Positions 5,669 through 5,703 of a DNA stretch of 64,000 nt are shown here, piece by piece (position 1 is the first letter of the stretch; each line of letters starts with the position of its first letter). Source of the stretch: a virus (Duplodnaviria > Heunggongvirae > Uroviricota > Caudoviricetes); the IMG/VR virus record IMGVR_UViG_2579778842_000003. One strand, written 5' to 3'. The position numbers were made by a program, and so were the translations under genes. The notes under the pieces are model-generated. The model was not told the origin of the DNA and did not search any database. It worked only from the letters and a program-made list of their open reading frames with translations.

Positions 5669-5703
5669 CTCGTAGAATCTGTTAACAAACTAGATTCTAC
5701 GAG
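5669..5703 (+). promoter_or_regulatory. 12-bp perfect inverted repeat hairpin overlapping the RBS of the next gene
   Basis: ctcgtagaatct-N11-agattctacgag; the 3' arm contains the GAGG Shine-Dalgarno 8 nt before the ATG at 5710. Confidence 0.35.

Follow-up and report, generated by a model that had tools for sequence, protein, structure and literature searches.

We asked what a long perfect palindrome does at the head of the tail operon of a P1-type phage, where one of its arms holds the -10 hexamer of a late promoter and the other most of a Shine-Dalgarno sequence. The palindrome lies in a stretch of viral DNA of 64,000 nucleotides, hereafter called the window, which comes from a P1-type phage and matches P1-type phages at 99-99.9% identity between positions 4400 and 7900. 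Immediately downstream is pmgC, followed by tub, pmgB and then the tape-measure gene sit; PmgC is an essential virion protein, either a tail adaptor or a component of head-tail joining (PMC9024508), and its essentiality was reported in PMC10695390 as well. Upstream are two cargo genes on the same strand as pmgC, the second of which has its stop codon 40 nt 5′ of the 5′ arm, and a terminator scan of the interval between that stop codon and the arm found no terminator-like site. Farther to the left, the window contains the immI region with its C4 RNA.

The inverted repeat and its surroundings

A preliminary description of this locus had drawn attention to a perfect 12-bp inverted repeat with an N11 loop at 5669-5703, and had placed the Shine-Dalgarno sequence of the gene at 5710 in its 3′ arm. 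Both statements are borne out. The arms, CTCGTAGAATCT and AGATTCTACGAG, are complementary at all 12 positions and are separated by the 11-nt loop GTTAACAAACT (Table 1), an arrangement recovered both by direct reading and by a repeat search; three of the four bases of GAGG, namely the GAG, are inside the 3′ arm, and a 5-nt spacer leads to the ATG. The repeat is beyond chance expectation: first-order Markov simulations contain a mean of 0.12 inverted repeats of this kind (12 bp, perfect, loop of 3-20 nt) per 64-kb window, and the window itself has five loci with one, loxP (47870-47903) among them.

As RNA, 101 nt around the repeat fold with a free energy of -26.3 kcal/mol, compared with -12.7 ± 2.7 kcal/mol for shuffled sequences (z = -5.0; none of 200 shuffles was as good). 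The hairpin has a modelled stability of -17.7 to -20 kcal/mol, with the modelled helix reaching about 15 bp once inner pairs are counted, and in the window variant the top of the stem includes a G·U pair, which can form in RNA only. The repeat finder also proposed a longer, 18-bp stem (5663-5709), the outer pairs of which (5663-5665 with 5707-5709) are broken among relatives, and we do not count them as part of the element. No curated RNA family of Rfam 15 covers the site, the one match being a sub-threshold, chance similarity to a microRNA hairpin model, which scored 20.3 bits where 47.5 are required, and we found no stem-loop annotated there. We found no prior description of the hairpin in the searchable literature, and an earlier mention elsewhere is possible. 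A search of the literature for a P1 transcription-start-site dataset found none.

Table 1. Features at the junction of the cargo genes and the tail operon (window coordinates)
Feature	Position	Strand	Basis
Upstream cargo gene 1, lipoprotein (P7 Upf50.5)	4565..5086	+	ORF, P7 annotation; weak TraT-like and glycine-zipper Pfam matches
Upstream cargo gene 2, secreted or membrane DUF5384 protein (P7 Upf50.0)	5090..5629	+	ORF, P7 annotation, Pfam DUF5384 E = 3e-43
Mosaic junction	5658	.	Window homology to reference P1 begins here, one base pair before the extended promoter
LPsit -22 box, AAATGACAA (in P1 AAATGACTA, same as the LP26 box)	5660..5668	+	AF234172/AF503408 annotation aligned to the window
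5′ arm of inverted repeat, CTCGTAGAATCT	5669..5680	+	Read from sequence; 5669-5679 invariant in 85 loci
LPsit -10 hexamer TAGAAT, within the 5′ arm	5673..5678	+	AF234172/AF503408 annotation aligned to the window
Loop, variable part of the element	5681..5691	+	5 of the 13 positions 5680-5692 vary
3′ arm, AGATTCTACGAG, includes GAG of the Shine-Dalgarno sequence	5692..5703	+	5693-5703 invariant in 85 loci
Shine-Dalgarno GAGG of pmgC	5701..5704	+	Direct sequence reading
pmgC (tubA in P7), first gene of the late operon pmgC-tub-pmgB-sit	5710..6276	+	ORF of 188 codons, P1/P7 annotation

Several other repeats and one RNA came to light in the same survey of the window. The -22 box region (5661-5672, AATGACAACTCG) and the start of pmgC (5709-5720, AATGACACCACG) form a direct repeat identical at 10 of 12 positions, probably by chance. 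A perfect 13-bp inverted repeat at 48540-48582 (TGGCCAACAACTC/GAGTTGTTGGCCA, 17-nt loop) ends about 25 nt 5′ of a GGAGGAGG ribosome binding site with an ATG (MINYVYGEQ...), and maps to about 94.0-94.2 kb of P1, which we take to be the c1/coi immunity region. Two perfect 14-bp inverted repeats look terminator-like: one at 18459-18490 (AAGTGAAGGCCCGA...), in a segment (15949-21400) that has no counterpart in reference P1, and one at 43009-43042 (AATTTATCGGGCAG...), which is followed by a T-run and is situated at the edge of a short segment unmatched in reference P1 (43010-44427), where P1 has res/mod. Finally, a sok antitoxin RNA of the hok/sok addiction module (Rfam, 113.9 bits) is encoded on the minus strand at 378-552, to the left of position 847, where the alignment of the window to reference P1 begins.

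The late promoter LPsit inside the 5′ arm

The reference annotations of both P1 (AF234172) and P7 (AF503408) put a late promoter, the Lpa-dependent LPsit, at this very site. As a promoter of this class, LPsit would be expected to need Lpa plus host SspA. All 11 annotated late promoters of P1 have a common layout, in which AAGTNACTT is followed after 4 nt by TAnnAT, and the window promoter fits it with AAATGACAA-CTCG-TAGAAT, located 5′ of the tail operon. In P1, LPsit equals LP26 at all box and -10 positions as well as in spacing, and every relative that possesses the element has kept ATGAC and the -10 hexamer. The dependence of P1 late promoters on Lpa, and the identity of the conserved box as the Lpa site, have been described (PMC10695390; PMC8198154).

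Because a start site cannot precede its own -10 hexamer, RNA made from LPsit has to be devoid of at least 10 of the 12 nt of the 5′ arm. Transcription from sigma-70 promoters starts 6-8 nt past the -10 hexamer, and by this geometry LPsit is predicted to start at about 5684-5686 (A, A, C), in the loop. With the -10 hexamer inside the 5′ arm, late mRNA therefore cannot form the hairpin, and only RNA entering from upstream can. Blocking simA, simB and simC by CRISPRi does not alter plating, and pmgC, tub, pmgB and sit come out as essential genes (PMC10695390); these data fit a self-sufficient promoter between sim and pmgC. Sigma-70 promoters are also predicted upstream in the reference annotation of P1.

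Compared with the other P1 late promoters (LPs, LP26, LPdar, LP23, LPpac and so on), LPsit shares the -22 box, the 4-nt spacer and TAnnAT, but it alone is embedded in a long perfect palindrome reaching the ribosome binding site, the others showing at most 3-5 kcal/mol of occlusion. It is also an outlier in the strength of its duplex, with -19.7 kcal/mol for the cognate pair of promoter and ribosome binding site versus about -7 kcal/mol for non-cognate pairs. Such pairing does not hold as a rule for all P1 late promoters: for the other ten, comparison of cognate with non-cognate duplexes yielded a permutation p of 0.24, and opening-cost differences amounted to just -2 to +5 kcal/mol. At LP23, LPdar, LPpac and LPhot, promoter-proximal sequence had seemed by eye to pair with the Shine-Dalgarno sequence. 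LPdar, LP23, LP26 and LPpmgL exhibit a smaller promoter-dependent occlusion of the ribosome binding site of their first gene, in the range of 3-5 kcal/mol, which is not significant for the group (p = 0.24); at LP23, for instance, CTCTTCC directly past the -10 hexamer pairs with GGAAGAG at the Shine-Dalgarno sequence of gene 23.

Conservation, pairing and the two proposed classes of transcript

A protein-anchored search, and hence one unbiased with respect to the hairpin, provided 85 usable P1-like loci representing 49 haplotypes. Over all 85 loci, none of the 22 positions in the arm cores (5669-5679 and 5693-5703) is variable, as opposed to 5 of 13 in the stretch that separates them (5680-5692; Fisher p = 0.004 versus arms) and 40 of the 133 third positions of pmgC codons (p = 0.001 versus arms); the six bases 3′ of the stem (5704-5709) include two variable ones. 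Invariance reaches CTCG and ATTCTAC, which are outside the -10 hexamer and the Shine-Dalgarno sequence. It should be noted that the conservation is partly accounted for without any pairing, since each arm has a function of its own, one as the -10 hexamer and the other as the Shine-Dalgarno sequence.

A more divergent relative, Cronobacter phage JK004, in which PmgC is 75% identical, has ACATGACAA-CTCG-TAAAAT-CGG-ctgaagat-CCG-ATTTTA-CGAG-gttggc-ATG at this place, that is, an identical promoter layout and a perfect 13-bp stem around an unrelated loop. The pair 5675:5697 is G:C in the window and has become A:T (A:U in RNA) in JK004 and its relatives, where TAGAAT/ATTCTA is replaced by TAAAAT/ATTTTA, and the pair 5680:5692 passes across clades from G:C through G·A to U:A. 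The core arms are 13 nt apart in the P1 clade and 12 nt apart in that of JK004. The stem state of JK004 is found with still other loops in four related viral contigs and in a further lineage (L156). When the 13-pair helix is laid over 16 distinct sequences, 10 pairs are invariant, two have changed on both sides and one alternates between G:C and G:U; a shift of partners by even one column lowers the share of paired cells from 92% to less than 50%. A search pattern leaving four stem positions free in each arm produced 100 viral-contig hits, every one of them fully complementary, and two pattern scans of the viral collection with different free stem positions returned the same 100 loci, with two stem states only. 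The covariation is thin, consisting of one clean and one stepwise event, and as a comparison of sequences it supports pairing and falls short of proof.

The cost of opening the region from the Shine-Dalgarno sequence to AUG+3 (5697-5715) was computed for several 5′ ends, each with five 3′ ends. For read-through RNA, with 5′ ends from 5400 to 5660, it is 15-18 kcal/mol over the five 3′ ends, versus 6-10 kcal/mol for late RNA beginning at 5685. Reference P1 shows the same contrast (17.1 kcal/mol for read-through and 6.4 kcal/mol for late RNA), as does the JK004 clade (15-20 versus 5-7.5 kcal/mol), and the modelled gap between the two classes of RNA is about 7-11 kcal/mol. [quoted passage not shown]

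According to that reading, to which we assign a probability of roughly 60%, the hairpin is part of a device like that of T4 gene e, insulating the late tail operon from upstream read-through; it would discriminate between classes of transcript, as in gene e, acting only on those that enter from upstream. A composite module of promoter and leader would thus head the operon pmgC-tub-pmgB-sit. Polymerase arriving from co-directional cargo, be it the lipoprotein genes present here, sim in P1 or another cassette elsewhere, would copy both arms, and a hairpin of about -18 kcal/mol would close as soon as the 3′ arm emerged, rapidly, since the arms are just 11 nt apart, hiding the ribosome binding site, so that pmgC would not be translated from read-through RNA. 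In a further step, the untranslated leader may become open to Rho or to decay, which would limit the downstream tail genes. This polarity step is required if the entire operon is to be insulated, because the hairpin blocks initiation at pmgC only, and tub and the later genes have ribosome binding sites of their own. Across the first approximately 150 nt (5650-5799), which run from the hairpin into the beginning of pmgC, C is in excess over G, which is compatible with a Rho step and is not evidence for it. During lytic growth, Lpa-directed transcription would start in the loop, at about 5684-5686, and yield mRNA devoid of the 5′ arm, with an accessible ribosome binding site from which pmgC would be translated. 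In this way the module would tie expression of the tail operon to late transcription, whatever cargo happens to be upstream.

Other explanations of the repeat have to be weighed against this one. The hairpin might serve the cargo as a transcription stop or RNA-end element: it could act as a weak intrinsic terminator, hold up 3′ exonucleases or be cut by RNase III. Like a Rho-independent terminator, it is a stable hairpin directly 3′ of a gene, 40 nt past the upstream stop codon, its helix extends to about 15 bp with inner pairs, and the window context has no other terminator-like site. Unlike such terminators, it lacks a U-tract, its 12-bp stem is AU-rich and its loop long, and both a promoter and a ribosome binding site overlap with it. 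Past the stem comes GUUUCAAUG in the window and GUUGGCAUG in the JK004 clade, and the tails, GTTTCAATG with its three T in the window and GTTGGCATG in JK004, do not form the U-tract of an intrinsic terminator. The terminator scan left the site unflagged on both strands. Moreover, the element stays with the pmgC module as cassettes are swapped, and some cassettes bring a canonical terminator with them. RNase III prefers about 20 bp of helix, more than the 12-15 bp available here. We regard a stop or RNA-end function as unlikely, and it could in any case coexist with a translational block. The repeat could, alternatively, have arisen as a by-product, its -10 and Shine-Dalgarno regions being complementary by accident and their pairing functionless. 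Each arm does hold an independently selected element, and the absence of excess cognate pairing at the other ten late promoters (p = 0.24) speaks against any general rule in P1; however, an expectation of 0.12 such repeats per window, a duplex of -19.7 rather than about -7 kcal/mol, invariance extending to CTCG and ATTCTAC, past the two functional motifs, and a compensatory change in a clade in which the loop has been entirely replaced and PmgC is 75% identical make an accident very improbable.

Two further possibilities had been raised in the preliminary description, which saw in the repeat either a translational control hairpin or a protein operator. An operator would bind a dimeric protein at the palindrome over the -10 hexamer, and so repress or modulate LPsit. 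The palindrome is perfect and does overlap the hexamer, and a symmetric double change between clades is also what one would expect of half-sites co-evolving with a homodimer. Nevertheless, no further copy of the half-site with fewer than two mismatches is present in the 64-kb window (loose matches number 8, against 12.7 expected); conservation extends over the full 11-13 bp of each arm instead of being limited to a few contact positions, and leaves the intervening sequence unconstrained; the distance between core arms differs by 1 nt between the P1 and JK004 clades; the other ten late promoters function without such a palindrome; the G·U pair at the top of the window's stem counts in RNA only; and no such regulator appears in the P1 annotation covered here. 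An operator is accordingly an unlikely explanation, and one shared by a regulon we do not retain. Of the translational control hairpin, one part stands: the ribosome binding site is hidden in the 3′ arm of a stable hairpin, and a block to initiation is to be expected. A switch that acts on the mRNA of the operon itself, whether a factor, temperature or a ribosome upstream were to throw it, does not fit, since the sole annotated late promoter of the operon has its -10 hexamer in the 5′ arm, which the resulting mRNA lacks, and the upstream stop codon, 40 nt away, is too distant for a terminating ribosome to melt the stem. We give such a switch hardly any credence.

The cargo slot and the parallel with T4

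The position of the element in the genome is consistent with insulation against incoming transcripts. To the left of 5658, at least seven unrelated cassettes are found among P1-like genomes, and to the right these genomes share the promoter, the hairpin and pmgC. The cassettes include sim, the pair of lipoprotein and DUF5384 genes, a 158-aa secreted protein, a 394-aa SH3-domain protein, a 419-aa DUF559/REase-like protein, a 256-aa protein and IS1, and nearly all are co-directional with pmgC. In the relatives L005, L006, L007, L038, L041, L064, L083 and L091, a cargo hotspot can be seen between immI (c4-icd-ant) and LPsit, corresponding to about 4250-5658 of the window, with its right junction fixed at 5658. 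The terminator scan found no terminator-like site before the hairpin in the window cassette, the 158-aa cassette, which is widespread, or the JK004 clade. Some cassettes have a terminator of their own (P1 sim, the 394-aa gene and the 256-aa gene), and there is less need of insulation in these cases.

The element goes together with foreign genes that lie 5′ of pmgC and point in its direction. Phage D6 and the Serratia and Pantoea relatives have neither the late-promoter motif nor the hairpin, and in them pmgC comes directly after bplB in a longer tail operon. In these distant relatives (L092 for D6, L009 for Serratia, L010 for Pantoea), 22-21-pmgG-bplB-pmgC-tub forms one block. In P1 the tail block is split, with immI, the lytic replicon and cargo located between bplB/pmgF and pmgC. 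JK004 (L091) is intermediate, having bplB, a strong terminator, two cargo genes and then LPsit with the hairpin and pmgC. We tentatively suggest, as a possibility that we consider less likely than not, that the module is a portable insulator marking a docking site for cargo: it would silence translation of pmgC, and via polarity possibly that of downstream genes, on incoming RNA, and restart expression only from the Lpa-dependent promoter, so that any co-directional cargo could be accepted in the interval from immI to the tail genes while virion synthesis stays regulated, and it may have arisen when the ancestral 22-21-pmgG-bplB-pmgC-tub block was split by insertions.

Devices of this kind are well known in T4, in which the genes e (lysozyme), soc, 49 and I-TevI have hairpins that inhibit the ribosome binding site, with a late promoter in the DNA for the 5′ strand (PMC3014915); for gene e, the difference in translation is about 100-fold (PMC3014915). 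The likeness is in the arrangement itself: a stem-loop hides the Shine-Dalgarno sequence in the longer RNA started upstream, and late RNA starts inside the structure and is without the 5′ arm, both by prediction in P1, so that in both phages translation of a late protein would be confined to the late period, which on the P1 side is likewise a prediction. The two systems differ in their promoters, P1 using host sigma-70 polymerase with Lpa (-22 box and -10 hexamer) and T4 the gp55 promoter TATAAATA, and in their carriers, the P1 type being a temperate plasmid-prophage. They also differ in the source of the upstream RNA, which in P1 comes from exchangeable cargo that is probably expressed in the lysogen, and in T4 from early and middle phage genes. 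The gated gene of P1 is a tail adaptor heading a long operon, and the P1 device is a proposed one. [quoted passage not shown] With the type of mechanism well known in T4, and LPsit already annotated in P1, hairpin gating of pmgC would be a modest addition to the biology of P1.

P1 is a model phage, widely used for transduction and as a phagemid chassis, and the P1-like plasmid-prophages of Enterobacteriaceae bear genes for resistance and exclusion. If the proposed function is correct, it would explain how an essential tail operon is silent in lysogens in spite of expressed cargo aimed at it, and why recombination at a very active cargo hotspot has its junction exactly at the edge of a promoter. 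The T4-style arrangement, in which a late promoter is placed within an anti-RBS hairpin, would then have an independent counterpart built on a different type of promoter. In practical terms, engineered cargo inserted into the sim slot should spare 5658-5709, and reporters fused to pmgC would report late transcription only.
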